Part shown: positions 1-43,091 of the stretch, piece after piece
Layout of the letters: each line of letters opens with the position of its first letter
Numbering within the stretch: position 1 is the first letter of the stretch
Origin: a phage
NCBI GenBank assembly: GCA_021146305.1
Contig: GCA_021146305.1_4336.1
Reading direction: 5' to 3' (one strand)
DNA length: 43,091 nt
Made by a program: the position numbers and the translations under genes
Notes under the pieces: model-generated
Seen by the model: only the letters and a program-made list of their open reading frames with translations
What the model was told of the DNA's origin: nothing
Database searches by the model: none

Positions 1-1996
1 GCTGGTAGCGACGCCACGCCAGCCAGTACGCTTGCTGATAGTTACGTACACCCTTCGATTCGTACTCCTCGGTGTTCGCGCCGAGTTCTTCCGGGATATA
101 AATCGTCTCCTGTACGTTTGTATCCGGGTCAATGTACGAGAACGACAGGCTATCGTAGGTTGTCGAATCGTTGAACGTGCGCGTCCATTTCTCCGTACCG
201 GTCGTTTTGCTGCGGTGGGTGAAAACCATCTCAGGCCCCGCAACAGGACGGTCGAATCGCAGCATAATATCAGCACCTTTACGGTATGCCGTACAAAACA
301 CGGCTTCCGCGATGGTCTGAACGATGTCTTGCATGGTTGTGTCGTAGTCGTCGAATGTGTAGCAGAACTGCCCGGCTAATTCACTGTCAAAATACGACTC
401 AATTTCTTCCTGCACGGCAAGTAACTTGTCCATATTTGCCGTTGTCAGTTCCAGATTACCCACCACAGGGTCACGCGCCAGCCTGATTAGCGACTGCACG
501 GCCTGAGTGTTCGGTGTCATTACCGTATCGAATACGCCGTTACCTAAGTATTTGTAGCACATCTCGGTTGCAATCATGCGCAGTTCCGGTTCGGACACCT
601 CGGCTGCACGTGGGGTTTGTTTACGGGCGCAGTGTACGGTAGTACGGTTGCCGTAGTGGGGGGTTGTGTCCAGCGACTGCCCATACAGATTAGTGAAAGT
701 AACCTCGTCGCTAACAGTACCTTCAAAATCTTTATCGGTGTCCGAAACACGACGCATACGGGCGCGGAATCTGGAAGCAGTTGGTAAACTTCCGTAAAGA
801 GTAATCCCTGTGTAATCCGTGTTCCGGCCTGTTACGGTTCCTCGTACGGTAAATATGTCACCTACAGGCTGTTTCAATTCATCTACCATCTGGTATTGCA
901 GTTCGACTGTCACTGAAGCGCGGCTATAGTCGCCGTTGTATTTGTACATGCCGTTGCTGGCAGCCACATTGGCTACAACACGGTCGACGGTTCCGCGGGT
1001 GATGTACGCCCATTCAGAGAGGGAAGCCGCGTAAGTATCCGCCGGGCCTATAAGATGGTTGCCCTCTTCACCTATAAACCACACAGACGTCCCTAGCTGG
1101 TTCCATATTGATTGATTTGTACTGACGTCCACAATAAGGGTCGTTTCACTAACAGAAAGAACCGTGTACCTCCCGTCCAGGTTAACCTCATTACCCAAAG
1201 ACCCTGGGGTTGTATCTGCATATACGTTATCGAAGTATGCCAGGTCCCCGACCGCCAAAAACTCATCGAAACCAGCGTCATCGCCTACTACAACGCCGGT
1301 TGTTCCCTGCCGCTGGACAGTGTAGTCCTGCACGTCTATAGCGATATCATTAGGGGCGGGAAGAACAGCGCCATCGACATCGGCGTTTTTAAATGTAACG
1401 TACAACTTCTGGTCTATCGGGTCGCCAATATGCAATTGTGGGGCGTTGGTGTTATTCGGCGAAGTGTAAGGGGAATACACCGCCACCGACGAGCCAGTTA
1501 TCTCGCTGATTCGGGTATCTGCCTCAGTTACACCGTCTTCCTCAATATGCAGATACCCTCGACCGGCGTCATAGTACGCATATTCAATAAGTACCCCAGA
1601 GGCATTAAACACCTTATATGTTTGCATCAGGTCATTGGGGATGGTCTGCACTGTCCCGCAGATATCATAAGAACGCTCGTAAGGCCGTGGCTTGTTTGAG
1701 CGGTCAGTAAGACTGTTGTTAGGCGACGTAGCCTGATTGTTGGTAGCGGAATAATTAGCGTTAGCTGCTGTGTTTAGCCCGAACAATTTGGCAATTGGCT
1801 TAAGGATGAAACTGAATACACTACCGATAGCGTCGCCGATGCCGCCGCCAGCACCCTCTATAATATGATACACGGCGTCTTCGTCTTTAAGCGCTTCGAA
1901 GTCGTCTGTTACATCTGTATCATCGCCAATCTCACCGAGGTAGACGCGCACAGGCACCCCGTCAGGAATATGGTTAACGACAAAATCTATCGGCAT
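1..1996 (-). CDS. tail tip / host-specificity protein (lambda J-like position); 3' end runs off the window start
   Basis: Minus-strand frame open from ATG at 1994-1996 down to position 2 (about 665 codons) with protein-like composition; directly downstream of the NlpC/P60 tail gene; plus-strand ORF 1112-1699 is its antisense shadow. Function inferred from position and size only. Confidence 0.55.
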   Translation of the reverse strand, partial: MPIDFVVNHIPDGVPVRVYLGEIGDDTDVTDDFEALKDEDAVYHIIEGAGGGIGDAIGSVFSFILKPIAKLFGLNTAANANYSATNNQATSPNNSLTDRSNKPRPYERSYDICGTVQTIPNDLMQTYKVFNASGVLIEYAYYDAGRGYLHIEEDGVTEADTRISEITGSSVAVYSPYTSPNNTNAPQLHIGDPIDQKLYVTFKNADVDGAVLPAPNDIAIDVQDYTVQRQGTTGVVVGDDAGFDEFLAVGDLAYFDNVYADTTPGSLGNEVNLDGRYTVLSVSETTLIVDVSTNQSIWNQLGTSVWFIGEEGNHLIGPADTYAASLSEWAYITRGTVDRVVANVAASNGMYKYNGDYSRASVTVELQYQMVDELKQPVGDIFTVRGTVTGRNTDYTGITLYGSLPTASRFRARMRRVSDTDKDFEGTVSDEVTFTNLYGQSLDTTPHYGNRTTVHCARKQTPRAAEVSEPELRMIATEMCYKYLGNGVFDTVMTPNTQAVQSLIRLARDPVVGNLELTTANMDKLLAVQEEIESYFDSELAGQFCYTFDDYDTTMQDIVQTIAEAVFCTAYRKGADIMLRFDRPVAGPEMVFTHRSKTTGTEKWTRTFNDSTTYDSLSFSYIDPDTNVQETIYIPEELGANTEEYESKGVRNYQQAYWLAWRRYQ

Positions 1997-2052
1997 CCCG
2001 ACGTGTTTTGTACGGTCGAAAGCGCCTTCAGCGTTTCGCGTGTAGTGCAGGA

Positions 2053-2418
2053 TTATCGCCAAAATTCAATCTCCGTGTACGTGTCTCCGAGGTCCACCAG
2101 CCTGTCAAGCCGTACCTGACGGGATGCAAGCTCGCAATGACTCACCATCCCGTCGAAGTAAACTCCAGCGTGCCACACGATACGACCCCCGCGGCGATAA
2201 CCCATAAGCACCGCGCAGAAGTTTTCAGGCTTATCAATTTTTGTAAGCCCCTTCGTGTCACGGTGGCCTTCGTCAAACGCTTCGTTAATTGCCGTTGGGC
2301 TTGTAACGTCGAACGCAGGGGTTTCTAACCCGGCATCCGCGCGGACAATGCGCACGTGATGCCAGCAATTGCGCTTGCGAAAGTCGTAAGGTATGCCCGT
2401 GTAGTCGTTAATATTCAT
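2053..2418 (-). CDS. NlpC/P60-family tail assembly peptidase (lambda K-like position)
   Basis: 121 aa; Cys and His motifs compatible with a papain-like NlpC/P60 fold (RNCWHH ... WHAGVYFDGMVSH); sits between minor tail genes and the J-like gene. Confidence 0.55.
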   Translation of the reverse strand: MNINDYTGIPYDFRKRNCWHHVRIVRADAGLETPAFDVTSPTAINEAFDEGHRDTKGLTKIDKPENFCAVLMGYRRGGRIVWHAGVYFDGMVSHCELASRQVRLDRLVDLGDTYTEIEFWR

Positions 2419-2945
2419 GTGGTCAACAGGCCGCGTAATAACGGTATCTCTTTAGGTGTCATCAGTATACCAGTGCTTCGCTGGTTCAGCATAGGTGTAC
2501 CAACATCCGCGGAGAACTCGCCCTTCTCCTGGTTGATGGCCTGCAACTCATACATGACAGGACCGTCAGCCGGATAAGACAGGTCTGTGCTGACGTAACG
2601 ACGGAAGACGAACTTCGGCAACTCGGTGTTACTCATAGGGATTTTATCCATCTCATCGTCAAGTTGATTGAGGATATCCGGTAAAGTAAACGTAGTCGTC
2701 TGGTCCATATCACTGTTGTTAGCCGCCCCCGACGCCTCCATCGGGGTAGGTTCGAATGTGATAATTTCGCCTGTCTCCAGTGTTGCCGTGAGTTCCTGTA
2801 ACCCGCGCACAAGATAGTACGTCTTAGACAGCAACGGGTGGCTGATTTGCAACGTGATGTAGTCCATCTCGCCGTCGGGGTTGGAGGCCAGCTTACGGCG
2901 ATAGGCGGCTTCTACTGATTCCTGGCTCATTGCATCGGTTCCCAA
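2415..2945 (-). CDS. minor tail protein (by synteny)
   Basis: 176 aa; ATGA-type 4-nt overlap with downstream gene; located between tape measure and NlpC/P60 gene. Confidence 0.4.
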   Translation of the reverse strand: MGTDAMSQESVEAAYRRKLASNPDGEMDYITLQISHPLLSKTYYLVRGLQELTATLETGEIITFEPTPMEASGAANNSDMDQTTTFTLPDILNQLDDEMDKIPMSNTELPKFVFRRYVSTDLSYPADGPVMYELQAINQEKGEFSADVGTPMLNQRSTGILMTPKEIPLLRGLLTT

Positions 2946-3427
2946 ATTCGTGGAAACGTTGATTGTGCGGTTCCGTAGGCTTTAAGGAAACACCCCAGCC
3001 CGTCACCATAACAACCATACAAATCCGGCAGATTGTTAACAAGGCACTGGTTCTCAAGGTCCTGGAACGGCGATTTCTCGGCGGTTGCCGTGAAAGTAAT
3101 TGTCCAGTTAATCCCGTCTTCAGTGGACTCGGCGACGGTGGATGTAATGGTGACTTGATAATCCTCAATACCCATGCCGAAGTCGTGCGCCATCCAGAAA
3201 CTTGACGCGCCACCATCGACTTTCTCGAGGAACGACAGAAACGCCTGCCGCCCCATTGCGGATGTAATCAGGGTTACGCTTATCGGAAACACGTCGTAAT
3301 ACGTGTCACGGCCCTGACGCACCCCGCCGCCAGCTAAATCGACGCTCCAGACGTTGTTACGTCTGGTCATTGAGTAGCCTTTTGACACTATAGGGCGGAG
3401 GCTACGTGGGAAATATAATTCGGTCAT
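2927..3427 (-). CDS. minor tail protein (by synteny)
   Basis: 166 aa; start codon overlaps the tape-measure stop (TAATG coupling). Confidence 0.4.
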   Translation of the reverse strand: MTELYFPRSLRPIVSKGYSMTRRNNVWSVDLAGGGVRQGRDTYYDVFPISVTLITSAMGRQAFLSFLEKVDGGASSFWMAHDFGMGIEDYQVTITSTVAESTEDGINWTITFTATAEKSPFQDLENQCLVNNLPDLYGCYGDGLGCFLKAYGTAQSTFPRIWEPMQ

Positions 3428-5766
3428 TATTTAAACCCCGGCGCATTTCTTGTGGCCTTGCGGGCCTTGCTAATCTTACTGTTACTGTTCTGCAAAGAGG
3501 CAGCCACTTGCTCCTCGATGATGATACGCAAACGGCCTTCATCATCTTGCTCAGTGGATACGTTGCCGATTTGAGAACTCGTGTTGTTTACGATAGTAAC
3601 ATTAGACGGTCCGGAAGAAGACCCGTTTTGCCCCATAATTTCTTTCATCTGCTGTGCGGTGCGTACACGTGACGCACCAGCGGGCATGATAACTTCCGGT
3701 TTACCGCGTTCGGCGATGGTTGAAGCCTGCCCCGCGGATAACTGTCCGCCCTGTTCACGTGCGGACCTGATAGCGGAAATCTGCGCCATACCCGCCCCAA
3801 CGGCAGCGGCGGCAGCTACAGGAGCCAGGAATGGGCCAACTACAGGGATAGCCGCCGTGGACTTGTACGCCTCGATAGCCGCGGTGTAAGTGGCTATGGT
3901 GGCCTGTACGATAGCGAATGCCTTATACGCACCAGAGGCCTCGCCCAACGCAGACCCGATGTTTGAGGCCATGTTACCGAAGGCGGTTGCCGTTGCGTCG
4001 GCACGCTTGGTTGCGTATTGCTCATTGATGGCGTTAAGCGCGGCCTGATACTGCTTCTCACTAATAAGACCCTGCTCACGGTACTTATCGGCTACCGCCA
4101 GTTTCTGCTGTTCCTGGATGTCGAGAAGCTCAAGCTCAGTAGCGTTCTGGCCCATAATCTGAGCCATGAAGTCTTCACCTTTCTGGTTCTTTTCCTGCCG
4201 TTCTTTCTCTCGTTTAGCGAGTTCCTCCTGGCGAGCAGTGTCCGCTTCCAGCATAATCTGCGTCTTGGCGTTTTCGTACTGCTGGTCGCTAAGAAGCTGA
4301 TTGCCGTAAAACTCCTGTAGCTTGGTTAACTGCTGTTCCTGGTTGGCTTCTATTTTCTGGAATACGTCATCATTGAGATGAATTGACTGATAGTAGAAAT
4401 CCTCCGCGGCTTTCTTCTGGCGCTCGAACGCATCCGCTGCTTTCTTAGCGGCTTTTGCACCCGCGCTATCATCTTCAGATCCGCCGCCGGTACCAGTTAC
4501 CTTAAATTTACTAAGCCCTTCTTCCTTAGCGGCTTCTTTGTCGATGTCATACGCTGCGCGTTTAAGCGCGACGATATTTTGCTGAGCCTCCACCTGTTCG
4601 CGGAAACTTTTACGTGTCAGGTCCGCAACGTCGCGCTGAGTATCCAGTGCCATCCCCAGCTGGAAGTTAATATTTTTTGCTACGTCTACGGATTCCCCTG
4701 GTGTGAAGGCGGCCTTAACCAGCCGACCGGCATCCTGCGCCCCTTTAACCATATCCTCAAAGAAGCGCTCCATCGCGGTAAATTCTTCCGCGATGAAATC
4801 GAGCGCATCGGCGGCTGATTCCGCTATGGTTGTCGCCGTTTGTTCGCCGCTATCCGTGATACTTTTGCTACTAAAATCCCAAAGCTCATTTAGCCCGTTT
4901 ATCGCATCACCCACGAAACCAAATGCCGCGTCGAATGACATCTCTATTGCGCTTCCTACTTCCGACGCGATGTCACCCCACATACGCATCTCTGCGGCAA
5001 GTTCACCGGACGCAACCTGTGCGTTAAGTTCCTGGATTAAATCATCGATGTATCGGATAGGTTCGGCGAGCGCACCAACATCAAGACTGGTAGCCAGCGT
5101 CATTTTTAACTGCGACCATGAGTCGCTGGCACTGGCGATGGCCCCGTTAAGTGTGTTGGCCTGGTCCGCCATAGCCCCCGCGAAGTTTACGTTACCGATG
5201 TTGAGCAGGTATTGCTCGATGTCGGCAGCGCTCTTCTTAACTACCGTAGTAGTACCCTGGAATGTAAATTCAACATCGTTTTTGTTCTGTTTGGCCTTGA
5301 TACCAAATTCTTTAAGGCGCTCAAATTCAAAAGTACTAGCGTCTGCAACCGCCTCAATCATCTGATTCAGGTCTTTACCCATAGCAGCGGCGGTGTTTCC
5401 GTAGGAACGCAACGCTTCTTCTGACGGTGTAAGACCAAGCGCCACAAGTTTACGGAATCCCTCTACCGCCTGTTCAAGGCCATACGGAGTGTCGCGCGCG
5501 AAGTCTTGCAGGATGCTTAACGCCTGTCTTGCACCCTGCGTGCTTCCGGTTAGTGTTTTCAGGCTGGCGGACATCTTGTCCAGTTGCCGATGGGATTCTA
5601 CCAGTTCCTGTGCGGCCTTGTAAGCGGTAGCGGCGACGATGGAAGCGAGGCCCGCTACCGCAGCTCCGGCTACCTTTGCAGACTTGGAAAGGTTATCAAG
5701 ACGGTCTGATGTAGCTTTCGCGCCTTGCTCTGATACTTTTACAACTAAACTAGCTACATCAGCCAT
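3427..5766 (-). CDS. tail tape measure protein
   Basis: 779 aa, Ala/Gln/Glu-rich with extended coiled-coil character; largest gene of the tail block; preceded by two small chaperone-like ORFs and followed by minor tail genes. Confidence 0.85.
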   Translation of the reverse strand: MADVASLVVKVSEQGAKATSDRLDNLSKSAKVAGAAVAGLASIVAATAYKAAQELVESHRQLDKMSASLKTLTGSTQGARQALSILQDFARDTPYGLEQAVEGFRKLVALGLTPSEEALRSYGNTAAAMGKDLNQMIEAVADASTFEFERLKEFGIKAKQNKNDVEFTFQGTTTVVKKSAADIEQYLLNIGNVNFAGAMADQANTLNGAIASASDSWSQLKMTLATSLDVGALAEPIRYIDDLIQELNAQVASGELAAEMRMWGDIASEVGSAIEMSFDAAFGFVGDAINGLNELWDFSSKSITDSGEQTATTIAESAADALDFIAEEFTAMERFFEDMVKGAQDAGRLVKAAFTPGESVDVAKNINFQLGMALDTQRDVADLTRKSFREQVEAQQNIVALKRAAYDIDKEAAKEEGLSKFKVTGTGGGSEDDSAGAKAAKKAADAFERQKKAAEDFYYQSIHLNDDVFQKIEANQEQQLTKLQEFYGNQLLSDQQYENAKTQIMLEADTARQEELAKREKERQEKNQKGEDFMAQIMGQNATELELLDIQEQQKLAVADKYREQGLISEKQYQAALNAINEQYATKRADATATAFGNMASNIGSALGEASGAYKAFAIVQATIATYTAAIEAYKSTAAIPVVGPFLAPVAAAAAVGAGMAQISAIRSAREQGGQLSAGQASTIAERGKPEVIMPAGASRVRTAQQMKEIMGQNGSSSGPSNVTIVNNTSSQIGNVSTEQDDEGRLRIIIEEQVAASLQNSNSKISKARKATRNAPGFK

Positions 5767-6118
5767 CGTTTCTACCCTCGAAAATAGCGTCTAAGCTCAT
5801 GATGATGTCAGATTCAAACATGCCTATATTCTGGCCTGAAACGGTGCTATATGCCACTAAATCCGACCATCTTAACTGTTCACGCGGATACATCTTGATG
5901 CCATCATCGTCCACTCGGCGGGTGAATTTGATTTCCCTGTACTTCTCGAAGGTGGTTAATAGCTCAGGGGGGCATTCTGGCCCGGTGTCCTGCGTTGCTT
6001 CCGGCGCGTCTTGCATAACCCCCATAGCAATTAGCGCGGCTTTATGCCCGTCGGAGATACTGTCAAACTCCCGCCGTTTGTGGCGAGTTATGAAGTTCCA
6101 ACGGGCAAACTGGAGCAA
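5759..6118 (-). CDS. tail assembly chaperone, frameshift-extension ORF (T-like part)
   Basis: 119-aa frame whose first in-frame start is TTG; the frame stays open upstream into the 3' end of ORF 6124-6540, consistent with expression as a -1 frameshift fusion. Confidence 0.45.
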   Translation of the reverse strand: MLQFARWNFITRHKRREFDSISDGHKAALIAMGVMQDAPEATQDTGPECPPELLTTFEKYREIKFTRRVDDDGIKMYPREQLRWSDLVAYSTVSGQNIGMFESDIIMSLDAIFEGRNDG

Positions 6119-6123
6119 CGCGT

Positions 6124-6133
6124 CTACTTTTCC
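6124..6133 (-). other. candidate -1 programmed ribosomal frameshift site
   Basis: Minus-strand heptamer GGAAAAG directly followed by the TAG stop of ORF 6124-6540; the -1 frame is the open frame of 5759-6118. Non-canonical heptamer, so tentative. Confidence 0.35.
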
Positions 6134-6540
6134 TGCAATTGGTGAAGCTGTTCGTTGTGGAAAACAACAACGTGTTCAGCGAGGCGTTTATATTGTGAAA
6201 AAAGAGTATTCAGGTTCTCTTTATTAAATTCATCGTCGAGACTCCAACCGTTAACCAGTTCAAGTGCTAACTGGCGGTTAAGGTCCGTCGCGGCGTCTTC
6301 CATCTTAATGTTATATTCCGAGAAATCTTTCAGTTCCTCGCATTTATCACGAAGCGGCTTCAGTTTACCTAACGACGCGCGGTACGCCAGGGTAAATGCA
6401 CGCATGGCTTTAACCGCAACGTCTGCCTCCGGTGAAACAACGTTCAGCCACTCCCCTGAATCGGTGCCGTCTTTCAGTGGGATCGGCATACGGGCGCCTT
6501 TTTCTGCCTCAGCTTCGTAATAAAAATCAGAAAGTTTCAT
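6124..6540 (-). CDS. tail assembly chaperone (G-like)
   Basis: 138 aa acidic protein immediately upstream of the tape measure gene; canonical chaperone position. Confidence 0.5.
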   Translation of the reverse strand: MKLSDFYYEAEAEKGARMPIPLKDGTDSGEWLNVVSPEADVAVKAMRAFTLAYRASLGKLKPLRDKCEELKDFSEYNIKMEDAATDLNRQLALELVNGWSLDDEFNKENLNTLFSQYKRLAEHVVVFHNEQLHQLQEK

Positions 6541-6647
6541 TCTTTAATCCTTTGGTTAAGAGGTTACGGGTTAAGGTTAATGCGCCAGACGGGAACCACC
6601 CGCTTTTCGTGTGCGACACTAGGCGCAAAATTATTCTATCACATTAC

Positions 6648-6676
6648 TTGCACACCCCAATATAATAGTGTACTAT
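6648..6676 (+). promoter_or_regulatory. sigma70-like promoter with operator palindrome
   Basis: TTGCAC (6648-6653), 17-bp spacer, TACTAT (6671-6676); palindrome TAATAG-tgta-CTATTC (6663-6678) overlaps the -10; about 40 bp upstream of ATG 6718. Confidence 0.55.
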
Positions 6677-6717
6677 TCACTTACACCAACGATGTTATCC
6701 CAAACAGGAGCTACACC

Positions 6718-6909
6718 ATGACGGGTATTACTATGTTCTTCTTAATCATTATCGTTTTAGTTTATTTTATTCCATTTCTCGTGGCGCATATGCGCGACCA
6801 TAAAGCGAAATTAGCGATATTCATGGCTAATCTGTTTCTTGGATGGGTTCTGCTGCCGTGGGTATTTATTTTAATCTGGGCTTGCAACTCGAATGTCAAA
6901 GAGAAGTGA
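6718..6909 (+). CDS. small membrane protein
   Basis: 64 aa from ATG 6718 preceded by AGGAG; two hydrophobic helices (FFLIIIVLVYFIPFLVA and LFLGWVLLPWVFILIW). The track ORF 6580-6909 is longer, but the internal ATG has the RBS and promoter. Confidence 0.55.
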   Translation: MTGITMFFLIIIVLVYFIPFLVAHMRDHKAKLAIFMANLFLGWVLLPWVFILIWACNSNVKEK

Positions 6910-6946
6910 GCTAGTATAGGACAAATCCTAAGCACGAGGAATAAAC

Positions 6947-8077
6947 ATGGCCCGGAAGAAAATAACCGACGAACAGTTGCAGGAAGAATTGAACGCCGGT
7001 ATGAAGAATGTAGATATCGCCCGTAAATACGGCATCTCAGACCGCGTAATTCGTATCCGTAAAGCGAAGCTGGCTAAGAAAGGCGTGGGCCACGGGCGCG
7101 ACGTTAGCCACCTTGTGCCAGACGGCTACAAGATTAAAGGAACGTCGTCACTTGTGGACGAGTTCGGCAACACTAAGTTGCAATGGGTTAAGACTGATAC
7201 CGACGCCGAACGTCAGGTTGAATTGATGAAAGCCGTAATAGAGGGCATGAAGTCAGAGATTACGCCCGTTGCGCCTGTTAAAGCGGCGCGCGCCAAACGT
7301 GACGACAAGCTACTCAATCTTTACACTGTATCTGATTTCCATCTCGGTATGCTGGCATGGGCCGATGAGAGCGGCGACGACTGGGACATGAAGATTGCAG
7401 AAGACCTGTTCTCTCGGTGGTTCGACGCGGCGTTTCAGAAAGCACCGGATGCAGGAACAGGAGTTATTAACCTGCTTGGGGACTTCGCACACTTCGATAG
7501 TCTTGATGCCGTTACCCCCGAGTCGCGCCATGTATTAGATGCGGATACTCGCTATCAGAAACTGGTACGTTACATGATTCGTATGGTCCGCCGTGTTGTT
7601 GATATGGCGCTGGTTAAGCATCACACAGTAAAACTTTTAATCGTTCAAGGTAACCACGACCCTGTTGGCTCCGTATGGCTTGCCGAAATGTTCACGGTTT
7701 TATACTCAAACGACAGCCGAGTGATTGTTGATACGTCGCCGGATGTTTACAAGATGGTGCAACACGGCAAAACGACGCTGTTCTTCCATCACGGGCATAA
7801 AGCACGATTCGACGCTATCGAACCGGTTATGATTGCCAAGTTCCGTAAAGCGTTCGGCGAGAGTGTTTACAGCTACGCCCACGTAGGCCATCTGCACCAC
7901 CAGAAGATTGTAGAAAGCCGTAACATGATTGTTGAGCAACACCGCACCTTAGCGGCTAAAGACGCCTACGCCTCTCGCGGCGGATGGATGTCGGGCCGCA
8001 GTGCAAATGTAATTACTTATAGCGCCGGATATGGTGAGGTCGCACGTTTAACTATTTCACCGGAGATGCTGGGATGA
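6947..8077 (+). CDS. HTH-containing calcineurin-like metallophosphoesterase
   Basis: 376 aa; N-terminal helix-turn-helix-like segment, then ordered metallophosphoesterase motifs SDFHLG, GDFAHFD, GNHD, HHGH, GHLHH (motif I resembles SbcD/Mre11 DWHLG); AGGA RBS. Confidence 0.7.
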   Translation: MARKKITDEQLQEELNAGMKNVDIARKYGISDRVIRIRKAKLAKKGVGHGRDVSHLVPDGYKIKGTSSLVDEFGNTKLQWVKTDTDAERQVELMKAVIEGMKSEITPVAPVKAARAKRDDKLLNLYTVSDFHLGMLAWADESGDDWDMKIAEDLFSRWFDAAFQKAPDAGTGVINLLGDFAHFDSLDAVTPESRHVLDADTRYQKLVRYMIRMVRRVVDMALVKHHTVKLLIVQGNHDPVGSVWLAEMFTVLYSNDSRVIVDTSPDVYKMVQHGKTTLFFHHGHKARFDAIEPVMIAKFRKAFGESVYSYAHVGHLHHQKIVESRNMIVEQHRTLAAKDAYASRGGWMSGRSANVITYSAGYGEVARLTISPEMLG

Positions 8078-8562
8078 AAGATATTGTAATTTTCGATTTA
8101 GACGGGACATTGGCCGACGGTACCCATCGCTTACACCTGTTACCAAAAGATAACTACGGAGAAACGTGGGCGTGGAAGCCATTTAACATGGCCTGCAAAG
8201 ATGACGCTCCGATATACGACAATATCCATTTGTGTAGCGTACTGTGGCATTCCGGACTTACTATAATTATCCTTACCGGGCGAAGTGATGACGCTGAGGA
8301 GGAGACTCGCGAATGGTTACGAGAGAATAACGTTAGGTTTGACACGCTAATCATGCGCAGCAAACACGACAACAGAAAAGACATCGTAATTAAAGAAGAG
8401 GTGTTGCGTGCTTTCGGACTGGAAAGAATCTTGTGTGCGTTCGACGACTCTCCAGCGGTAATAAAGCATTTCCGTGACCTCGGCATAACCGCACACGCAG
8501 TTACCGAATACGACTGTAACGGGAACTCTACACACTTAAAACCACACGGGAGCGATAAATAA
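8074..8562 (+). CDS. HAD-superfamily phosphatase (polynucleotide 3'-phosphatase / nucleotidase-like)
   Basis: 162 aa; N-terminal FDLDGTLADG (HAD motif I, DxDGT) plus downstream RKD..KEE segment; resemblance to the T4 Pnk phosphatase domain is recalled from memory, not aligned; ATGA coupling to upstream gene. Confidence 0.6.
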   Translation: MKDIVIFDLDGTLADGTHRLHLLPKDNYGETWAWKPFNMACKDDAPIYDNIHLCSVLWHSGLTIIILTGRSDDAEEETREWLRENNVRFDTLIMRSKHDNRKDIVIKEEVLRAFGLERILCAFDDSPAVIKHFRDLGITAHAVTEYDCNGNSTHLKPHGSDK

Positions 8563-9116
8563 TGGCTAAGGTAATTATTCTTAATGGCCCTGCGGGTTGC
8601 GGGAAAGACACGCTTGCTATGGCGCTGGTAGAAATGGGCTTTGCGAAAGGAACTACCAGTTTCAAGAATCCAATGTTCAATATTGCTTTGGCAGCGTTAG
8701 GCCAGGATGCTTACCACGAATTTCTCGACGGCTACGACGACCGGGCGCGGAAAGAAAAACCCGAGGGTTTTCTTAATGGGTTGTCCCGCCGCCGGTTAAT
8801 GATTGCCATTTCTGAGCAATTCATTAAACCGGTATTCGGCGATGATTATTTCGGTAAGTATCTTGCTGAAAACTTGCCTGACGGCGACGAAGTTTTTGTA
8901 GTGTCCGATGGTGGATTCGCCAGTGAAGTTGCCCCTATCGTCGCCGCGGGGCATGACGTGCGAATCGTCCGCCTCCATCGTGACGGCTATACGTTCATCC
9001 GCGATAGCCGTGGCTATCTGTACGATGTTAGTGGTGTAAAAGATTACGACACCTACATCATACCGGGTGACGTTAAATCGAACGTTATAGACATTGCTTT
9101 AAAATTAGGTTTGTAA
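8562..9116 (+). CDS. P-loop kinase (dNMP kinase / polynucleotide kinase-like)
   Basis: 184 aa; Walker A GPAGCGKDT; overall pattern resembles phage dNMP kinase family (recalled, not aligned). Confidence 0.6.
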   Translation: MAKVIILNGPAGCGKDTLAMALVEMGFAKGTTSFKNPMFNIALAALGQDAYHEFLDGYDDRARKEKPEGFLNGLSRRRLMIAISEQFIKPVFGDDYFGKYLAENLPDGDEVFVVSDGGFASEVAPIVAAGHDVRIVRLHRDGYTFIRDSRGYLYDVSGVKDYDTYIIPGDVKSNVIDIALKLGL

Positions 9117-9146
9117 GAAAAAGGCCCCGAAAGGGGCCTTAGTTTT
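9117..9146. terminator. bidirectional intrinsic terminator
   Basis: aaGGCCCC-gaaa-GGGGCCtt hairpin (8-bp GC stem, 9121-9140) with A-run upstream and T-run downstream, between convergent genes 8562-9116 (+) and 9145-10317 (-). Confidence 0.8.
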
Positions 9147-10317
9147 ATGCGTAGGTGATACGTTGAATTACGATAGACGACTGGTACTGATTGCCGGTAG
9201 CCTGGCCTTCAATGGACTGAGTGATTGACTCAGGCCCACCAATCTCAGGTGTAACCGCCGTAAGCTCTGCACGTTTCAAACTGAAAGACATAGCCCCGTT
9301 TACCCCTGCCAGAATAGAGTTAATCTCTACCTGCTGCTCGTTGATAAACTTCTGAATCATAGCCATGTCGTACAGCTTGCCGGAGATGGAGAAGGTGTTA
9401 GCCGCGCGGCTACGTTCCACAAACGCTACGTTAGTGTTGCCGAGTTCGAACTGTGCGGACGCGCTGTTGTCGTTGGTGATGGTAAGGCTATCGCAACGCA
9501 ACGGGGTAGAACCGTCGAACACGGAAACGTCAACCGAAGAGAACGGCTCATCACCAAAAGTAACAGATGAGAAGTTGGAACCGGTCGGCGGCGTAGTGAG
9601 AATCTCCTGACTGCGACCGATGAATGGGAAGCTGCCAGTTACCATCGCGTTAACAGCCTGTTCGATGGTAAAACCAGAAACTTCCACGCCTTTGGTTAAC
9701 GTGTACGCGTCAGTACCGCCGCACTGGCCTTTGTACCAGGTAAGGATAGAGAACGTCTTACACGTGTTACCGGTTTCCAGCGTGTCGCCGGTTTTAGCCT
9801 TACTAGTTTTTGTCTCGGGGGTCAGGGTGTGTTGGATGCCCGCACCAGTAACAACCGTAGCCGTTACTGCAGTAACAATAAATGGTTTTGCGTTATCGCC
9901 TGTTAAATCGGTAAATGCAATCAGGTCGCCTATCCCAACTTCGTCAGCGATAAAACTGCCGGTAGCGCGTGTGAACGTCTTGCCTGCAGGCGCGACGGTA
10001 ATTGATAGCCCGGTCAGAGAACTACCGGATTGCCATGTAGAGCCTAAAGCACCCGCCAGCCAGTCGTCCTGGCTTTTCGAGCTAAGCTCAATAGCGTATT
10101 CTCCGCTAACCTGCTTGTTACCGGTGCGGATTGACGTAGTTTCACGGCTGCCGTCCAGTTCGTTGGAGGTCAGCGTGTCGCGGGTAATGGCAGGAACGCC
10201 ACCTGTGTTACGCAATGGCGACCAGACCGGGTTAGTCGGTGTTACGCCAGGGGTAGTTTCTGCCACATAGAATTGCGCAGTATTCGCGCCCTTAAAAGGA
10301 GTTGTAGCCATATTCAC
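9145..10317 (-). CDS. major tail protein (by synteny)
   Basis: 390 aa, Thr/Ser/Gly-rich; in transcription order lies just before the tail chaperones and tape measure; ends at a strong terminator. Confidence 0.55.
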   Translation of the reverse strand: MNMATTPFKGANTAQFYVAETTPGVTPTNPVWSPLRNTGGVPAITRDTLTSNELDGSRETTSIRTGNKQVSGEYAIELSSKSQDDWLAGALGSTWQSGSSLTGLSITVAPAGKTFTRATGSFIADEVGIGDLIAFTDLTGDNAKPFIVTAVTATVVTGAGIQHTLTPETKTSKAKTGDTLETGNTCKTFSILTWYKGQCGGTDAYTLTKGVEVSGFTIEQAVNAMVTGSFPFIGRSQEILTTPPTGSNFSSVTFGDEPFSSVDVSVFDGSTPLRCDSLTITNDNSASAQFELGNTNVAFVERSRAANTFSISGKLYDMAMIQKFINEQQVEINSILAGVNGAMSFSLKRAELTAVTPEIGGPESITQSIEGQATGNQYQSSIVIQRITYA

Positions 10318-10730
10318 AGCCTCTTGGTGAATGCAATAAAGTTAATTGACAATGGTCGTTTGGCCCATCCGTTTTCTACAATCAGCGGCCCCAGGCTAAC
10401 CGATTGAACCTCGGCGCAGATGTCGTTACGTGAAAATGACTTACCTGCTTTAAACGCCGTGTTAAGTAAGTCTGCCATTTTATTGATTGGCGCGCTACCT
10501 TTCACCGATGCGTAGTTAATGTCTATCTGATAGACACCGGCGCGTTGTTCCGTGAAGAATAAGTCAGCCTGCTCGGTATCCGCCAGCAACATGTAACTTG
10601 CCAGATACGGCGTATCTGTTGACGTCGGCGCGTCGACGTTTTCAAGCGCTACCTTGATGCCGTTGGTGGTTCCGAAGGCTACCAGCGGCACATCAAACGC
10701 TTTTGTTAAGTCCTCAAAGTAGCCCATCAT
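10314..10730 (-). CDS. tail completion / terminator-type protein (by synteny)
   Basis: 138 aa; ATGA-coupled within the neck-tail gene run. Confidence 0.35.
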   Translation of the reverse strand: MMGYFEDLTKAFDVPLVAFGTTNGIKVALENVDAPTSTDTPYLASYMLLADTEQADLFFTEQRAGVYQIDINYASVKGSAPINKMADLLNTAFKAGKSFSRNDICAEVQSVSLGPLIVENGWAKRPLSINFIAFTKRL

Positions 10731-11122
10731 CTCACCTTGCTAGCTTCTTCGTTAATGAGTTGCTGGAAGCGGGACACGTTAGTCCTGACGAATCCTTGCG
10801 GGGCCTGTTGCGACCAGCCATACTCCAGCCGTTGTGCATACGGCAGGTTATTTGTCAGCGTGAACTCATGCCAGTCGGTGGCTTTCAGCACGAAACTTGT
10901 AACGTTTCCGGTTGCTGTGTTTCCTGATTTATCCGTAGCATCCGTAATCCCGGAAGCAGGAGTACCGCCAGATGCCATCCAGTTCATGCGAAACCGACCA
11001 GTATCTACCGGACTCGCCTTTATAATAGCGGAAAACAGCTTGATAGACACCTGACGCATCACCTTCTCAGGGTTCTTCTTCGCCTTTTCCACGAACTTAG
11101 AGACGTCCAGCGCGAAACTCAT
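10727..11122 (-). CDS. head-tail joining protein (by synteny)
   Basis: 131 aa; translationally coupled with neighbours. Confidence 0.35.
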   Translation of the reverse strand: MSFALDVSKFVEKAKKNPEKVMRQVSIKLFSAIIKASPVDTGRFRMNWMASGGTPASGITDATDKSGNTATGNVTSFVLKATDWHEFTLTNNLPYAQRLEYGWSQQAPQGFVRTNVSRFQQLINEEASKVR

Positions 11123-11478
11123 TTTCTCACCTGAATAAAGTAGGCCACAACATCATCGTTAACCACCTTTTTCTCAATGGCTACGACGGACCATTGCTCG
11201 CCGCCGAATTGCACTTTGTCTTCCATCTTAGGAACGACGCTGTAATCGGCTTTAACAATCATGTCACCAGCCTGAATCGTCGTACCGTTCACCAGACCCG
11301 CATTAACAGGAACCGGAACGGCCTTCAACGGCAACACTTCATCCGCAGACCAGACGTACTCACCGAGAACTTCATCCCACACTTTCGAGCCAGCGCGAAT
11401 CAGAGATACCGTGCTACCGAATTTGGTTAACAGGCGTGTACCCACGCCTTGCATACGTTTACTGAAAGCTGTGCTCAT
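11119..11478 (-). CDS. head-tail joining protein (by synteny)
   Basis: Start chosen at internal ATG 11476-11478, which forms an ATGA overlap with the stop of 11475-12092; the track ORF extends to 11532. Confidence 0.35.
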   Translation of the reverse strand: MSTAFSKRMQGVGTRLLTKFGSTVSLIRAGSKVWDEVLGEYVWSADEVLPLKAVPVPVNAGLVNGTTIQAGDMIVKADYSVVPKMEDKVQFGGEQWSVVAIEKKVVNDDVVAYFIQVRK

Positions 11479-12092
11479 CGGGCGGCCTCCAGTCTCGAGA
11501 TAACCAGTAGCGCGGATGGTGCTGTACCCCATGCGGTTACGGTAGCCGCTTGCGGGTATACGCCGCCGAAGTTGCTTCCGGCGCTATCCCGCATAATCTG
11601 AACGGCAAACGTCTGGCCTGCTGTTGGGTTAATAACAACGCGAGATTCAATCTGGATTGTGGTGTCCGCGCTTACCAGTTTCGTGGCGGCAGGTGAGCCG
11701 TACTGAGCACCGTTCAGAAGAATGCGTGATAACAGGATAGACGTTCCGCTGGCACCTGTGCGGCCTGCCTGTAACTTGATGCGAACGGCGTAGTTACCGG
11801 CGGTGTTGAATGTAACCAGCCCCGCAGCATTAATCATTACCGGGTCGGATGCACTACCCTGAGCTGCACCGAAAGTTAACTGCAATGCCGTATCTACCGC
11901 GGTAGGCGCTTGGGTTACCGTAGACGCGGCACGGAGAACTTCAACCTCTTTAACACCTGGAGTGGCGTAAATAGGTGAGTCAGCCATCTGTGTCATTACC
12001 TCGCGCAACGCTGCTGGGGTAATAAGCCCGGTAGTGTTATCGGGGAGGTTTGCGCCGATAAGAGTAAACATCTCTGATTTAGTCTTCGCCAT
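11475..12092 (-). CDS. neck / head-completion protein (by synteny)
   Basis: 205 aa, Ala/Thr/Gly-rich. Confidence 0.35.
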   Translation of the reverse strand: MAKTKSEMFTLIGANLPDNTTGLITPAALREVMTQMADSPIYATPGVKEVEVLRAASTVTQAPTAVDTALQLTFGAAQGSASDPVMINAAGLVTFNTAGNYAVRIKLQAGRTGASGTSILLSRILLNGAQYGSPAATKLVSADTTIQIESRVVINPTAGQTFAVQIMRDSAGSNFGGVYPQAATVTAWGTAPSALLVISRLEAAR

Positions 12093-12094
12093 TT

Positions 12095-12607
12095 TTAACC
12101 CCGGTACACATTAAATGAGAAGCCGTTGTTAAGACCACCACACAGTAACGGGCGTAAGGCGTCGTCAGCGGCGGTAATCGCGGTTGTGGTCCCGCTGTTG
12201 CCGTTGTTGAAGTAGGTAACTGTTACCGCACCCTCTACACGCTCGGTCTGCACGGAACGTCCATCGGAGTTAGCCCGAACATCAGTGCCCGCTCCATAAG
12301 TAACAGCAGCGATTACCTGCGCACGGATTAACTGCGACGGAATAACATTATCAGCTACGGTGAAGCCGTTTAGTGTTGTCCCTGTACGCGGGTACGCCAG
12401 CGACTGTTCAGCGGATACACGTCTACCACACATCTGCGGTTCTGCAAGCCCGACATAAGTAGCGCCGTTGCGCAGGGCTACTTCGGCGGCGGTATCATCT
12501 GCCGGTAACTCAAGACCGTAATTAGCCGCTAACGCGCGGGCGTCAGTCAGACTAACGTAACTGTCAGCGTTAGGTACTATCGACCCGTCTTCCACGATTA
12601 GCGGCAT
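12095..12607 (-). CDS. head-tail adaptor (by synteny)
   Basis: 170 aa; start preceded by AGAGG. Confidence 0.35.
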   Translation of the reverse strand: MPLIVEDGSIVPNADSYVSLTDARALAANYGLELPADDTAAEVALRNGATYVGLAEPQMCGRRVSAEQSLAYPRTGTTLNGFTVADNVIPSQLIRAQVIAAVTYGAGTDVRANSDGRSVQTERVEGAVTVTYFNNGNSGTTTAITAADDALRPLLCGGLNNGFSFNVYRG

Positions 12608-12610
12608 AAA

Positions 12611-12790
12611 TTATTCCTCTGATTTACGGCGACGACGCTTAGCACCACCGCCGTTGTTGTGCGCTTCTTCGTTGTCCGGTTGAGTCGCAACCAGTTCATC
12701 CGCTTCTACCACACCGCGAACAGGCATCACCTGACCGTCTACAATATCAACGTGGGTGTACTTTTCGCGGATTACATAATTATCTGCCAT
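12611..12790 (-). CDS. small hypothetical protein
   Basis: 59 aa from ATG 12788-12790 to TAA at 12611-12613; basic C-terminus (KRRRRK); below the track size cut-off. Confidence 0.3.
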   Translation of the reverse strand: MADNYVIREKYTHVDIVDGQVMPVRGVVEADELVATQPDNEEAHNNGGGAKRRRRKSEE

Positions 12791-12826
12791 GACCTTTCCT
12801 TATTACGGCCCCGAAGGGCCGCTGTA

Positions 12827-13168
12827 TTAAGACACAGTTGCTACAGTGCTGCGGGAGATAATATTACCATACGCATCGTGAACAACCACTTTATACGTAC
12901 CGGAGTCGGCGGCAGTGGCCGATGCTTTAGCATAGGTAGCTGCGGTAGCCCCGGCGATGGCGTTGTTATTCTTATACCACTGGTAAGAATATGGCTCCAG
13001 ACCACCGGCTACCGTTACGGTCAGCGTCATAGTTTCACCTGTGGGCACTGCGGTAGTAGCCGCCAGCGCGGAAGAGAAAGACGCAGGAGAAATAGTCGCC
13101 ATGTCAATCTTAGCGCCCGGGGCGTCAGCGGAGACGCCGGTGATACGTCGCTTCAATACGTCTACCAT
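12827..13168 (-). CDS. Ig-like domain protein (possible capsid decoration)
   Basis: 113 aa; beta-rich motif TLTVTVAGGLEPYSYQWYKNN...SGTYKVVV typical of Ig-like (Big_2-type) domains; immediately downstream of the major capsid gene. Confidence 0.5.
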   Translation of the reverse strand: MVDVLKRRITGVSADAPGAKIDMATISPASFSSALAATTAVPTGETMTLTVTVAGGLEPYSYQWYKNNNAIAGATAATYAKASATAADSGTYKVVVHDAYGNIISRSTVATVS

Positions 13169-13185
13169 TTAGTAATCCTCTTAGT

Positions 13186-13212
13186 AAATGAAAAGAGGGA
13201 CCGAAGTCCCTC
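13186..13212 (-). terminator. intrinsic terminator after the capsid gene
   Basis: Hairpin AGAGGGAC-cgaa-GTCCCTCT (13193-13212) followed on the minus strand by a T-run (plus-strand A-run 13188-13192). Confidence 0.7.
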
Positions 13213-13229
13213 TCGATTATAGCTTAACC

Positions 13230-14279
13230 TTAAGCACCGACACCAGTTACCAGGAAGGCAATCGGTACGTGCTTGCGGTCAACCACACGGTTCCAGTTGG
13301 AGGCGTTCGCCAGGTCCTGCCAGGAAGCAGAGCGCGGGGTAGTCTCGGTGCCGTTGCCAGTGATTACTGCACTGGTGAAGCTGTAACCAAACGGATGTAG
13401 CAACCAGGTCTTACGGGTCCACAGGGTTTCAACGCCGCCGCCGTTGCCGCGGGACGCTTCGCGCTCGTATTCCAGCGGGTTGGACGGAGAACCTTCACCG
13501 TAACCGATAGCGCCGTTGCCGAAGATGATGGAGATGAACTTACTGGTCCGGCCAGCGCCGACTACGGTCATGCTGTCGTCAACAATCACGCGGTAGCCCT
13601 GGTAGGTGGCGAACATGGTGTTGTTGTCCGCGTCACGGATGAAGTCGATAAGCTGCTGCTTACGTGCCTGCGCATAAACGAAGCTATGCATCGCGATAGC
13701 CCCCAGCACTTCACCGCCGTTGCCCATCAGCGCATCACCCATAGTCTGGGTAGCGTCGATGAACGCACCGGAGTCGAAGCCCAGAGTAGCGGACACGTCG
13801 ATTACCATGTCATTCTGCTCGTGGTAAGCATCGGTAGCGGCTACGTTGTCGTTGTACAGACCGAGCGCGGTAGCAATAAGACGGCGTTGTGCCTGGCGCT
13901 GCCAGAAGTTATCCAGACGGGACGCTACGGATTGCAGCGGGTTCTGGCTGGTCAGTTCTACAGTCAAATCCGCCTGACCGAAACCTTCGTTCAGGTATGC
14001 AACGCGGGCCATCATCTCGCCGGTCTGCACGTTACGCGGGGTGGCGATGTCCTGGTATACGTCGTTCGAGTAGTTCGGCTCGATAGAGGTATCAATCGCT
14101 TTCCAGAAAGGAATATTAGCGACGTTGGACGGGCCGCGGGCAATCTCGGCGGCGTATGGGGTCGGGGTCAGAATACCAGACTGGAAGAACGCGGTTTTTT
14201 CTACCGGGTCCTCGGTCATATAAGACGCCAGGACCGGGATGTTGCCAGTTACGATATCGCCGATAGTGGTAATTGCCAT
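13230..14279 (-). CDS. major capsid protein
   Basis: 349 aa; abundant-protein context (own downstream terminator, preceded by scaffold gene); composition typical of HK97-fold capsid proteins. Confidence 0.8.
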   Translation of the reverse strand: MAITTIGDIVTGNIPVLASYMTEDPVEKTAFFQSGILTPTPYAAEIARGPSNVANIPFWKAIDTSIEPNYSNDVYQDIATPRNVQTGEMMARVAYLNEGFGQADLTVELTSQNPLQSVASRLDNFWQRQAQRRLIATALGLYNDNVAATDAYHEQNDMVIDVSATLGFDSGAFIDATQTMGDALMGNGGEVLGAIAMHSFVYAQARKQQLIDFIRDADNNTMFATYQGYRVIVDDSMTVVGAGRTSKFISIIFGNGAIGYGEGSPSNPLEYEREASRGNGGGVETLWTRKTWLLHPFGYSFTSAVITGNGTETTPRSASWQDLANASNWNRVVDRKHVPIAFLVTGVGA

Positions 14280-14281
14280 TA

Positions 14282-14983: not shown

Positions 14984-15065
14984 AGTCAGTATGTCCCCTG
15001 GACGTTGGAACCCGGGCCACCCGGATTTACATGTCAAGAATAAATTATTCCAACATGCAAGGCAA

Positions 15066-15561: not shown

Positions 15562-15671
15562 GTTTCTCCTTTCTCGATAAGTAAAGCCCCGCCATAAAGC
15601 GGGGCGCTAGTCCTTATCATTTAAACATAGAAACGGCGTAATCTCAGTAAACCAGTTACTTTTTACACAAG

Positions 15672-15826: not shown

Positions 15827-15880
15827 TTTATTCCAACATTTACAATTGAGTGGAATAACCGGAATACATAAACAAATAGT

Positions 15881-15909: not shown

Positions 15910-15936
15910 TCATTCTATCGAACCGGGGAGGCCGTC

Positions 15937-16447: not shown

Positions 16448-16451
16448 AAAT

Positions 16452-40247: not shown

Positions 40248-42584
40248 TTAACTGTTTGTCAGGGTAGCCACTAATGTCTCAAGCGCTATAATCCTTTTCT
40301 CTAACTGAGCTGCTTTACGTCGCTGTAACGCAGCCTCTAATATCAATACCTCATCATAACGAATACCATACCGCTCCCCTGCCGCCGTAGCTTTTGTTAA
40401 TACTTCCCCAGATTCCTCATCAATAATTTCCGGAGACGCTTCCCACTTATCGTAGCACAGGAAACCGTACTTAGTCGCGTCCAACCCGTGCCGGGTAAAC
40501 GCCTCAATTGCTCGTTGGGCTACTACTCCAAAGTGCCACCTAGCTGCATCCTCCCCCTTCTCTGCAACCCTATCCAGGTACTTATATTGAACTAAATTAA
40601 CTTCAGCCCAAGCGTCTAACATAGCGTCAGTTAATTCCAGGGGTAGTGTCTTGGCTCTCTCGTCAGACGTAACCGTAAACGCTGTTTGAGTGAATCCGCC
40701 GGACAAAGCTCTACTTGCCGACCCGATAGCGACGGTGTTTGCACTGGATGGTGTAATAGCCGTCGGGGCTATTTGAATATACGCCGATGCGTCAGAGGCT
40801 AAGCGTAAATAACCATTAACCAGAGAAATAGTTCGAGAAGTACCATCAGATGTGAGTAATTTTATCTGAGAGGTCGTACCTCCACCAATAGCCAAAGATG
40901 TAGCCCCGTCGGAAATTAGTCTGAATTTATCAGCTGTCACAAAAGGCAATGCAGAAGTATTTATATACTTAGTGAACCACTCAAACCTACCGGACATGGA
41001 CCCTATGTATTGTCCTATAGCGGGGGCGTGTACCACGTTACTGGTGGTAGTACCATCAATGCTAGAGACTCCGGTTATAGTAGATCGTGAACTAAGAAGA
41101 CTGTTCTTGGGTCCAGGGTGCTTTACTTCCACAAAGTTACGGGTAGTCCCTGTCTCTAGTGTAACAACCCCGGAAGCACTATACATAGGGAAAACCGATG
41201 CGTAGTTATTACTAGCTCCGTCTAAAAACCTAATAGAAGTCGCGGTTTGCGTTTGCCCTAAACTATTAGTTCCGCTGCACCCAACCATTAGAATATTATC
41301 AGCGGCATTATAGTTGCCTTGTAATGTAACGCCGTGTGCTTGCGTGGCCTCGGAGGAGGAGTAATCAGCTACAACATTTGTCACCAGATTACCTGAACCC
41401 TCGCCGGCGACCACAGCGGCATACTTAGCGTTATTAGCAACAACATTACTGATAATATTACTGCTAGGGGCATTGGTCGTCTCGGTGCCATTATAAACAA
41501 CGTGCTGACAGCTTTGCCCAATGACGCCACTAACAACATTACATTTAGCATCTGTTTTCAACTCAACCGCCCCGAATTGGGGGTAGTTTCGGGCGATAAC
41601 ATCGTTGATTATAGTATTACTTGCGGACTCAAACAGCACGCACCCCGCTTTTTTATTTGTAGCATACCCGGAGTAGTCACCCCGTATGCCGCTTACAATG
41701 TATCCAGACGGACCCCCATCGCTAGGGTATGCTACTAAACTAAATCCAGTTCCCTTTGCATTTTTAAAATCAATACCTTTAATAGTAACGTCCTGCCCAC
41801 CGGCGAAGGAAACCTGCTGACCCTGTGTGAAGTCCGTTGCCTTATTTCCTACAATACTCAGGGTGCTAAGTAGCCCTCCTGCAGGTTTATCAAAGATTAA
41901 GTGGTTTCCAGAATCGTTTGATTGTTTTAAAACCCCACCCCCTGTTCCGAATAGAGAGCATGTCGGGTGGGAGAGTAGCGACGTACTATACTCCCCTTGC
42001 GGTACAAGCACCCCGTTACTAGCTGTAAGCGCTCGGTTAAGGGCGTTTGTGTAATCAGGGTCAGTACCTAAATAGAAGTCCAGAACGGAAACTACTTCTC
42101 TATTTTTATCGTGTTGCGTCCTGCCGACAGCGTCGGTAAATGGTTGTCGGACGCCGACCATGGCATCACCTAATGTCGCATTGTCTGTGCTGGATAAATC
42201 ATTGCGCAAATCCGGGTCAGTCTGCGGCTTCCAGTTAGCGTCACCAACCGGGTTAAACGATGCGGGGACAACAACCGGCAGAGTCCCGGTATACGAGTAC
42301 CACGTCTTGCTTACAGGGTCATACACCACTTTGTCGCGGTCATTAGCGGTTAACGTACCACCAGTGGAAAAGTCCCATGACACCGGAGAAAAACCAGCGT
42401 CACGCAACACGGCTGGTAACGTCTTTTGGGTCTGCCCTGTAACGGCATTTGTCGCGTAATCAATATCGGCGCCACCTGCAATACCTCCAGATTTGCCAGT
42501 GATAACCTCGGCTTCGAAAATCTGGTGTTTCTTGGCGGTTTGTAAATCCGCCAGGCTTAAAACGTCACCGCATCCGCTTGACAT
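40248..42584 (-). CDS. tailspike / depolymerase-type receptor-binding protein with C-terminal intramolecular chaperone
   Basis: 778 aa; strong AGAGGA RBS; Gly/Asn/Thr/Ser-rich central region; C-terminal ~139 aa begins TSDERAK (S codon 40665-40667), the signature of the peptidase S74 auto-cleaving chaperone domain. Confidence 0.75.
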   Translation of the reverse strand: MSSGCGDVLSLADLQTAKKHQIFEAEVITGKSGGIAGGADIDYATNAVTGQTQKTLPAVLRDAGFSPVSWDFSTGGTLTANDRDKVVYDPVSKTWYSYTGTLPVVVPASFNPVGDANWKPQTDPDLRNDLSSTDNATLGDAMVGVRQPFTDAVGRTQHDKNREVVSVLDFYLGTDPDYTNALNRALTASNGVLVPQGEYSTSLLSHPTCSLFGTGGGVLKQSNDSGNHLIFDKPAGGLLSTLSIVGNKATDFTQGQQVSFAGGQDVTIKGIDFKNAKGTGFSLVAYPSDGGPSGYIVSGIRGDYSGYATNKKAGCVLFESASNTIINDVIARNYPQFGAVELKTDAKCNVVSGVIGQSCQHVVYNGTETTNAPSSNIISNVVANNAKYAAVVAGEGSGNLVTNVVADYSSSEATQAHGVTLQGNYNAADNILMVGCSGTNSLGQTQTATSIRFLDGASNNYASVFPMYSASGVVTLETGTTRNFVEVKHPGPKNSLLSSRSTITGVSSIDGTTTSNVVHAPAIGQYIGSMSGRFEWFTKYINTSALPFVTADKFRLISDGATSLAIGGGTTSQIKLLTSDGTSRTISLVNGYLRLASDASAYIQIAPTAITPSSANTVAIGSASRALSGGFTQTAFTVTSDERAKTLPLELTDAMLDAWAEVNLVQYKYLDRVAEKGEDAARWHFGVVAQRAIEAFTRHGLDATKYGFLCYDKWEASPEIIDEESGEVLTKATAAGERYGIRYDEVLILEAALQRRKAAQLEKRIIALETLVATLTNS

Positions 42585-42596
42585 ATAGAGTCCTCT

Positions 42597-43022
42597 TTAA
42601 TTAAAACCATTGCTGAATCCGTCGGAGAAACCGCTGCCGTATGGCGCGACGCCGTCGTATTTATAGAATCCGTCGTCATAGTTGTAGCCAGTAATCTTGA
42701 CCGTGCGGTCGTCGCCGGGGTCGATTGAAGAAACAACTATCTTCTGAGCATTATGCCTTGCTTCGTTGCCGAATGAAAACTCAGTTTTTAGTGCGCTATT
42801 CCCCGTGTAGATTGCTTCCTCCGGCGCGGAGAGCATAATCACCTCGCGGTCGTGGCTTCCTTTAATAACGGAGATACTCTGTACAGAGCCATCGCGCTTC
42901 TTAAGAATGATGGAATGGTCATCACCAGGAGTAAACGTAACAGGCTGAGACAGCGTCAGCGTAAGGCCATTGACGGCAACAACATAACCATCCTGCGGCG
43001 CGATACGCGAGCCTTTAACCAC
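42597..43022 (-). CDS. hypothetical tail-associated protein; start uncertain
   Basis: 141-aa track ORF beginning at GTG; the frame is open to the window end (43091) and continues in the same frame at the window start if the ends are joined; lies between the J-like gene and the tailspike. Confidence 0.4.
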   Translation of the reverse strand: MVKGSRIAPQDGYVVAVNGLTLTLSQPVTFTPGDDHSIILKKRDGSVQSISVIKGSHDREVIMLSAPEEAIYTGNSALKTEFSFGNEARHNAQKIVVSSIDPGDDRTVKITGYNYDDGFYKYDGVAPYGSGFSDGFSNGFN

Positions 43023-43091
43023 ACTGATTACGCCGCCGGGAGTAGCGAGAGCGCCTTCTTCGGTAGCTTCGAACTCTACGACAACTTTACT

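Follow-up and report, generated by a model that had tools for sequence, protein, structure and literature searches.

A Kagunavirus-type (Guernseyvirinae) Escherichia coli siphophage genome, very probably assembled around its full circle, cut inside the tail-tip gene and left eleven bases short

The tail genes of phage lambda lie in the order H-M-L-K-I-J, and J encodes a protein of 1,132 aa. In Shigella siphophage Sf11, residues 81-827 of gp14 were modelled by cryo-EM; this protein is present in three copies per virion and forms a trimeric tail tip, and the Sf11 distal tail protein has a long C-terminal extension that docks the tailspikes (PMC12724387). Pac or headful packaging has also been predicted for phages of this kind. 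PhageTerm predicts pac packaging for the Guernseyvirinae-like phage Shashou (PMC6776780), and K1G and K1H have terminases that group with those of headful packagers (PMC5582158). Assemblers are known to produce gapped circularisation, the loss of a few bases where a contig begins or ends (PMC6966772, Fig. S5B).

The window, which is the whole stretch of 43,091 nt analysed here, shows colinearity all the way round with Escherichia phage vB_EcoS-22664BS2 (MZ234010; genome of 45,176 bp), a member of Guernseyvirinae and Kagunavirus. Identity to MZ234010 is 95.2% over 93% of window positions 1-25000 and 95.4% over 75% of the rest. Similarity to and colinearity with this classified member place the window in Kagunavirus. 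In the 2025 phage collection, the closest whole-genome match shares ~95% identity over ~87% of the window, and no record there is 100% identical to it. The phage may represent a distinct species-level lineage within Kagunavirus. A further record, vB_EcoM_SHAK7858 (OR594183.1), is labelled Autographiviridae; Studiervirinae; Kayfunavirus, yet it is 92-97% identical to and colinear with the window. Both its taxonomy line and its 'vB_EcoM' morphotype tag look wrong.

The tail-tip module at 2053-5766 has the same gene order as in the relatives and in Sf11 (PMC12724387), and all its genes lie on the minus strand. It is composed of the tape measure gene (3427-5766; Pfam TMP_3, below cut-off), a distal-tail-protein-like ORF of 166 aa (2927-3427), a gene for a DUF1833 protein of 171 aa (2415-2930; Pfam DUF1833) and an ORF of 121 aa (2053-2418). 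For the 166-aa ORF the gene caller picks a start that gives 147 aa. This ORF, which follows the tape measure gene, is 465 aa long in the closest relatives, and 955 nt of MZ234010 stand there against 50 nt of the window. The short form is natural and common, as it is found in 48 phage records, including K1G and K1H. It adjoins a 778-aa Peptidase_S74 tailspike in two related loci (L037 and L045), while in two others (L043 and L029) a tailspike of this kind is paired with the long 465-aa form.

The tail-tip gene itself is met in the window as two open frames on the minus strand. The first frame starts at ATG 1996, stays open through 665 codons to base 2, ends in …AYWLAWRRYQ and leaves one base (C) over. 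It makes up the 5' four-fifths of the gene (1..1996; TipJ-family, 'baseplate hub 2' or J-like) and matches NF040662, phrog_469 and phrog_31307. The second frame begins exactly at 43091, runs through 164 open codons and closes with the TAA stop at 42597-42599. It makes up the 3' fifth (42597..43091) and matches NF040662, phrog_469 and phrog_31. It differs from the J-like frame, and its first in-frame start codon is GTG 43022. When base 1 is joined directly to 43091, the next codons are CAG and TAA, which gives …RRYQQ*. The preliminary description had reported the J-like frame as open to base 2, the CAG-TAA across an exact join, the ORF at 42597-43022 as open to the window end in another frame and a tailspike gene shortly after the J-like gene; direct reading of the sequence, with the second frame taken from 43091, reproduces each of these. 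It had also regarded …RRYQQ-stop as a clean C-terminus, and this is not borne out, because translation carries on in the 42597-43091 frame (…RRYQRNTLSKVVVE…) as far as the stop at 42597. An exact join leads into a frame with 12 stops in 165 codons, which corresponds to p ~0.14 for a stop within two codons, and the out-of-frame runs in the tail-tip gene have a median of 9 codons. A stop within two codons is thus expected by chance in ~14% of cases, and the 'clean stop' is uninformative.

Related loci were compared at the junction. MAFFT alignment with two phage records placed 11 extra bases exactly between window positions 43091 and 1, reading TAACGTGTTGC in one record and TAACGCATTGC in the other. 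Each record has one 'tail protein' CDS (833-855 aa) that runs across the site, and the tailspike or tail-fibre gene follows it after 12 nt. In MZ234010, the missing 11 nt are positions 26399-26409. The phage collection was searched with the last 700 nt and the first 700 nt of the window joined together, and 466 phage records matched, chiefly phages of Salmonella (343) and Escherichia (103). Among the matches listed, the matched span exceeded the query span by 11 nt in 30 of 30 records. Both junction flanks were also scanned with a gap of 0-30 nt permitted, and the gap was 11 nt in all 8 IMG/VR contigs and all 9 metagenome contigs found; the same scan gave no match in bacterial genomes. Taken over all loci fetched, the 11-nt gap is present in 46 of the 46 related loci spanning the junction, in four sequence variants, and a 0-nt gap was found in none of them. 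One unrelated metagenome contig (ENA ERZ27230482 k141_104974; 2,249 nt, 93% identical) ends at the very base that corresponds to window 43091. This shared end is most likely a selection effect of the exact look-up with the 164-aa partial product.

An independent assembly contains the same bases. The tailspike protein of the window was matched residue for residue on one public contig, DRR314304_122 (43,132 nt) from SRA run DRR314304. Look-ups with conserved proteins of 171 aa, 138 aa and 121 aa returned many relatives, and the DRR314304 contig was not among them. Positions 1-8096 of this contig correspond to window 3982-12077, positions 26267-39110 to window 30248-43091 and positions 39122-43132 to window 1-4011, each with 100.000% identity and 0 mismatches. 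Between the last two blocks, positions 39111-39121 read TAACGTGTTGC, which is not in the window. The comparison covered 24,921 window bases; the 18,170 nt of the record at 8097-26266 (~18 kb) agree with window 12078-30247 by length alone. To judge from its sequence, DRR314304_122 is the same phage as the window, assembled independently. The same 30 nt stand at its beginning and at its end, and equal contig ends are what the authors of Logan themselves take as the mark of a circular contig (PMC12424806, section 3.14.2). The contig therefore closes on itself through a k-1 end repeat and yields a circular map, with a unique length of 43,132 - 30 = 43,102 nt, which is 43,091 + 11. Its own cut point, given by the 30-nt end repeat, maps to window 3982-4011 and is not a genome feature, so the cut site is arbitrary. 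The gene caller finds one 855-aa product directly before the tailspike on this contig.

These results bear on the proposal in the preliminary description that the window ends are contiguous. The ends are indeed neighbours, and the window is one complete circular-map genome, apart from 11 bases, as supported by the circular DRR314304_122 and by colinearity with MZ234010. Exact contiguity does not hold, since the 11 bases missing from the window are present in every junction-spanning locus and in the identical Logan contig, and the independent DRR314304 assembly thus has extra sequence between the two ends.

The missing bases restore one reading frame. At the junction 43091/1, the 11 absent bases read TAACGTGTTGC on the plus strand and GC AAC ACG TTA on the coding strand, and they complete Arg-Asn-Thr-Leu. 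Because 11 is 3n+2, the two frames of the window fuse into one ORF of 833 aa that reads …RRYQ-RNTL-SKVVVEFEAT… across the junction. A single 833-aa ORF is present in 12 of the 12 relatives whose full gene was compared, and gene callers predict a product of 828-855 aa in every related locus. The gene starts at ATG 1996 (833 aa) or at TTG 2062 (855 aa); the TTG has GGAG 7 nt upstream and is preferred by most gene callers on the relatives. Large-scale protein comparison gave 808 homologues, the best 120 of which are all 813-855 aa long with coverage of 98-100%, and none of these 120 ends near residue 666.

Profile searches gave the same picture. NF040662 (NCBIfam attach_TipJ_rel, 'host specificity factor TipJ family phage tail protein', 477 positions) is matched by the N-piece over profile positions 5-324 (residues 337-663 of 665). 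With 258.9 bits, this piece alone clears the cut-off of 140 bits and belongs to the family. The C-piece alone scores 115.4 bits over profile positions 332-477 (residues 2-144), and a full-length relative that is 99% identical (P0001) scores 391.9 bits. The seven uncovered profile positions between the two matches equal the 2 + 4 + 1 residues around the gap. The profile is thus covered by one polypeptide once the 11 nt are restored and is split in the window as given. Likewise, once these bases are put back, the alignment to phrog_469 'tail protein' runs over the junction, with the C-piece at its positions 746-901. The N-piece matches phrog_31307 'tail protein' as well, and the C-piece also matches phrog_31 'central tail fiber J' (E 3e-9). 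Searches of Pfam with both J-like pieces at E <= 0.01 found no family.

The substitution pattern indicates where the downstream frame is coding. Substitutions between the C-piece frame and the relatives are nearly all synonymous, and against the nearest relatives they are synonymous only (11:0). For the 23 codons upstream of GTG 43022, the synonymous to nonsynonymous counts include 8:0, 7:0 and 6:0. Purifying selection therefore reaches upstream of GTG 43022, which means that this stretch is coding and that GTG 43022 is not the start. The preliminary description had left the start of the ORF at 42597-43022 either at this GTG or across the junction; the second option stands and the first falls, as selection extends upstream. 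The separate 141-aa ORF from GTG 43022 is an artefact.

The best explanation, held with a probability of roughly 94%, is that the assembly covers the full circle of an E. coli siphophage of the Kagunavirus type (Guernseyvirinae), with a cut in the tail-tip gene at which 11 bases went missing, and that the two open frames are one gene. A circle of 43,102 bp would have been linearised at an arbitrary point inside this gene, and the 11 bases would have been dropped there. The J-like ORF and the ORF at 42597-43091 are then one TipJ-family baseplate-hub gene of 833 aa (855 aa from TTG), whose stop at 42597 lies 12 nt short of the tailspike gene, and the stop 5 nt across the exact join is a chance out-of-frame stop. 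The missing bases, the single ORF, the circular closure and the family match are direct results of the analysis. The loss probably arose in assembly or end-trimming and not in the phage, because it coincides with the contig ends and because the identical Logan contig has the bases.

A true 11-bp deletion has to be weighed against this explanation. If the exact join were real, the junction would read …ACTTTACTGCTGGTAG…, the tail-tip protein would be truncated at residue 666 (…RRYQQ*), and the C-terminal domain would be untranslated or made from GTG 43022. The window does lack the bases, an exact join does yield a stop, and a GTG is present at 43022. However, such a deletion must coincide with the arbitrary linearisation point, which has ~1 chance in 43,000, and the otherwise 100% identical Logan contig has the 11 nt (24,921 bases compared). 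The lack of a truncated homologue among the best 120 of 808 and the exclusively synonymous changes of the C-part against its nearest relatives also argue against it, as does the C-terminal region being modelled in the Sf11 gp14 tail tip (residues 81-827; PMC12724387). The deletion is accordingly very unlikely. What it would require of the phage, namely a viable Kagunavirus with a hub truncated at residue 666 whose last ~164 residues are dispensable or form a separate polypeptide from the internal GTG, is highly improbable. In the MAFFT alignment, no flanking repeat for a microhomology-mediated deletion was seen by eye, and this process is not needed for the data.

The window ends could also be physical termini (cos or a direct terminal repeat), or the window could be part of a larger genome, in which case the gap would exceed 11 nt. 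A search for a terminal direct repeat of 5 to 400 nt found none in the window; the window alone therefore carries no circularity signal, which leaves room for such a view. Against it, the ends sit midway in a conserved structural gene, the independent assembly reads through them, closes elsewhere and has the length of the window + 11, colinearity with the relatives extends round their complete circle, and the subfamily is reported to package by a pac or headful mechanism (PMC6776780, PMC5582158). Termini or a larger genome can hardly be expected on this evidence. Recoding by a programmed frameshift or bypass that joins both frames in vivo over the exact junction has a negligible probability: nothing more than two adjacent open frames speaks for it, while all relatives encode the link directly via the 11 nt, the tail-tip family offers no precedent, the identical Logan contig requires none, and the data are explained without it.

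The packaging genes are relevant to the nature of the ends. The terminase large subunit (20287-21558, minus strand; Pfam Terminase_6N and Terminase_6C) and small subunit (21548-22096, minus strand) lie together, and phrog_3064, phrog_2 and phrog_10250 are matched across the region 20287-22096. By analogy with the described phages, the virion DNA of the window phage would be headful-packaged and circularly permuted. Virion DNA that is packaged by headful is circularly permuted and therefore assembles into a circle, which fits the present case. Among the head genes, the portal gene and a Mu-F-like head gene flank a 217-aa ORF on the plus strand (18122-18775). This ORF, which is probably an accessory gene gained by insertion, gives a weak KilA-N match (20.4 bits against the Pfam cut-off of 23.8). 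Window positions 15913-16445 and 17992-18814 have no counterpart in MZ234010.

The tailspike gene follows the tail-tip gene. The spacer from the tail-tip stop to the tailspike ATG (42585..42596, minus strand) is 12 nt long and contains GAGGA as the ribosome-binding site, and the relatives have the identical 12-nt spacing. The tailspike of 778 aa (40248..42584, minus strand; Pfam, phrog_14895) has a C-terminal intramolecular chaperone domain, with Peptidase_S74 at residues 640-701 (E 1e-13) and a weak Tail_spike_N match below cut-off. The body of the tailspike (40246-42195), its central and C-terminal part, is unmatched in the closest whole-genome relatives, MZ234010 and SHAK7858, and the match to these two is confined to the initial ~390 nt of the gene (42196-42584). 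The same body is 98.5% identical to a contig in IMG/VR (L011), and further contigs of the Kagunavirus type carry it too. From the sequence comparison, this pattern looks like a typical receptor-binding module swap.

The practical consequence concerns annotation. Annotated as given, the record yields a truncated tail-tip protein and an orphan ORF of 141-164 aa, and if left unrepaired it might yield a false 'split' or 'pseudogenised' host-range gene. With the 11 bases restored, there is an ordinary intact gene in a genome of 43,102 bp, and no open biological question is touched. None of the three, phage, gene family or type of artefact, is new.

Each of these has a described counterpart. The benchmark of Wick and Holt (PMC6966772) contains complete assemblies that are short of a few end bases, as in the window; it dealt with long-read assemblers and bacterial replicons. 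With the lambda gpJ/TipJ family, the tail-tip protein shares a match to NF040662 above cut-off and a gene position downstream of those for the tape measure and the minor tail proteins. Unlike lambda J, it is far shorter and has no Pfam J-type domain (e.g. Phage-tail_3). No long C-terminal fibre or receptor-binding region was found in the tail-tip protein, and host recognition is presumably carried out by the separate tailspike.

Sf11 gp14, the 'baseplate hub 2 protein' (PDB 9OCC chain E), has 828 aa compared with 833 aa here. The homology is distant and detected by phmmer only (E 6e-26, stretches 10-243 and 507-814 of the restored protein), and the second stretch, query residues 507-814, is aligned continuously across the junction. 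The two loci share their architecture, with a P22-like tailspike adjoining in Sf11, whereas the Sf11 distal tail protein has 457 aa compared with the 166-aa form in the window. By analogy with gp14, the TipJ-family hub protein of the window would form a trimeric tail tip. The nearest counterparts are the tail proteins of Kagunavirus-type phages, namely MZ234010 (vB_EcoS-22664BS2, CDS 24409-26904), SHAK7858 (WVW77794.1) and Bas70 (XPK42474.1), with 93-98% nucleotide identity to the window on either side of the junction. The window shares with them the order tape measure, DTP, DUF1833 protein, 121-aa protein, tail protein and tailspike. It differs from them in lacking the 11 nt, which are present in these relatives within one CDS of 831-855 aa.
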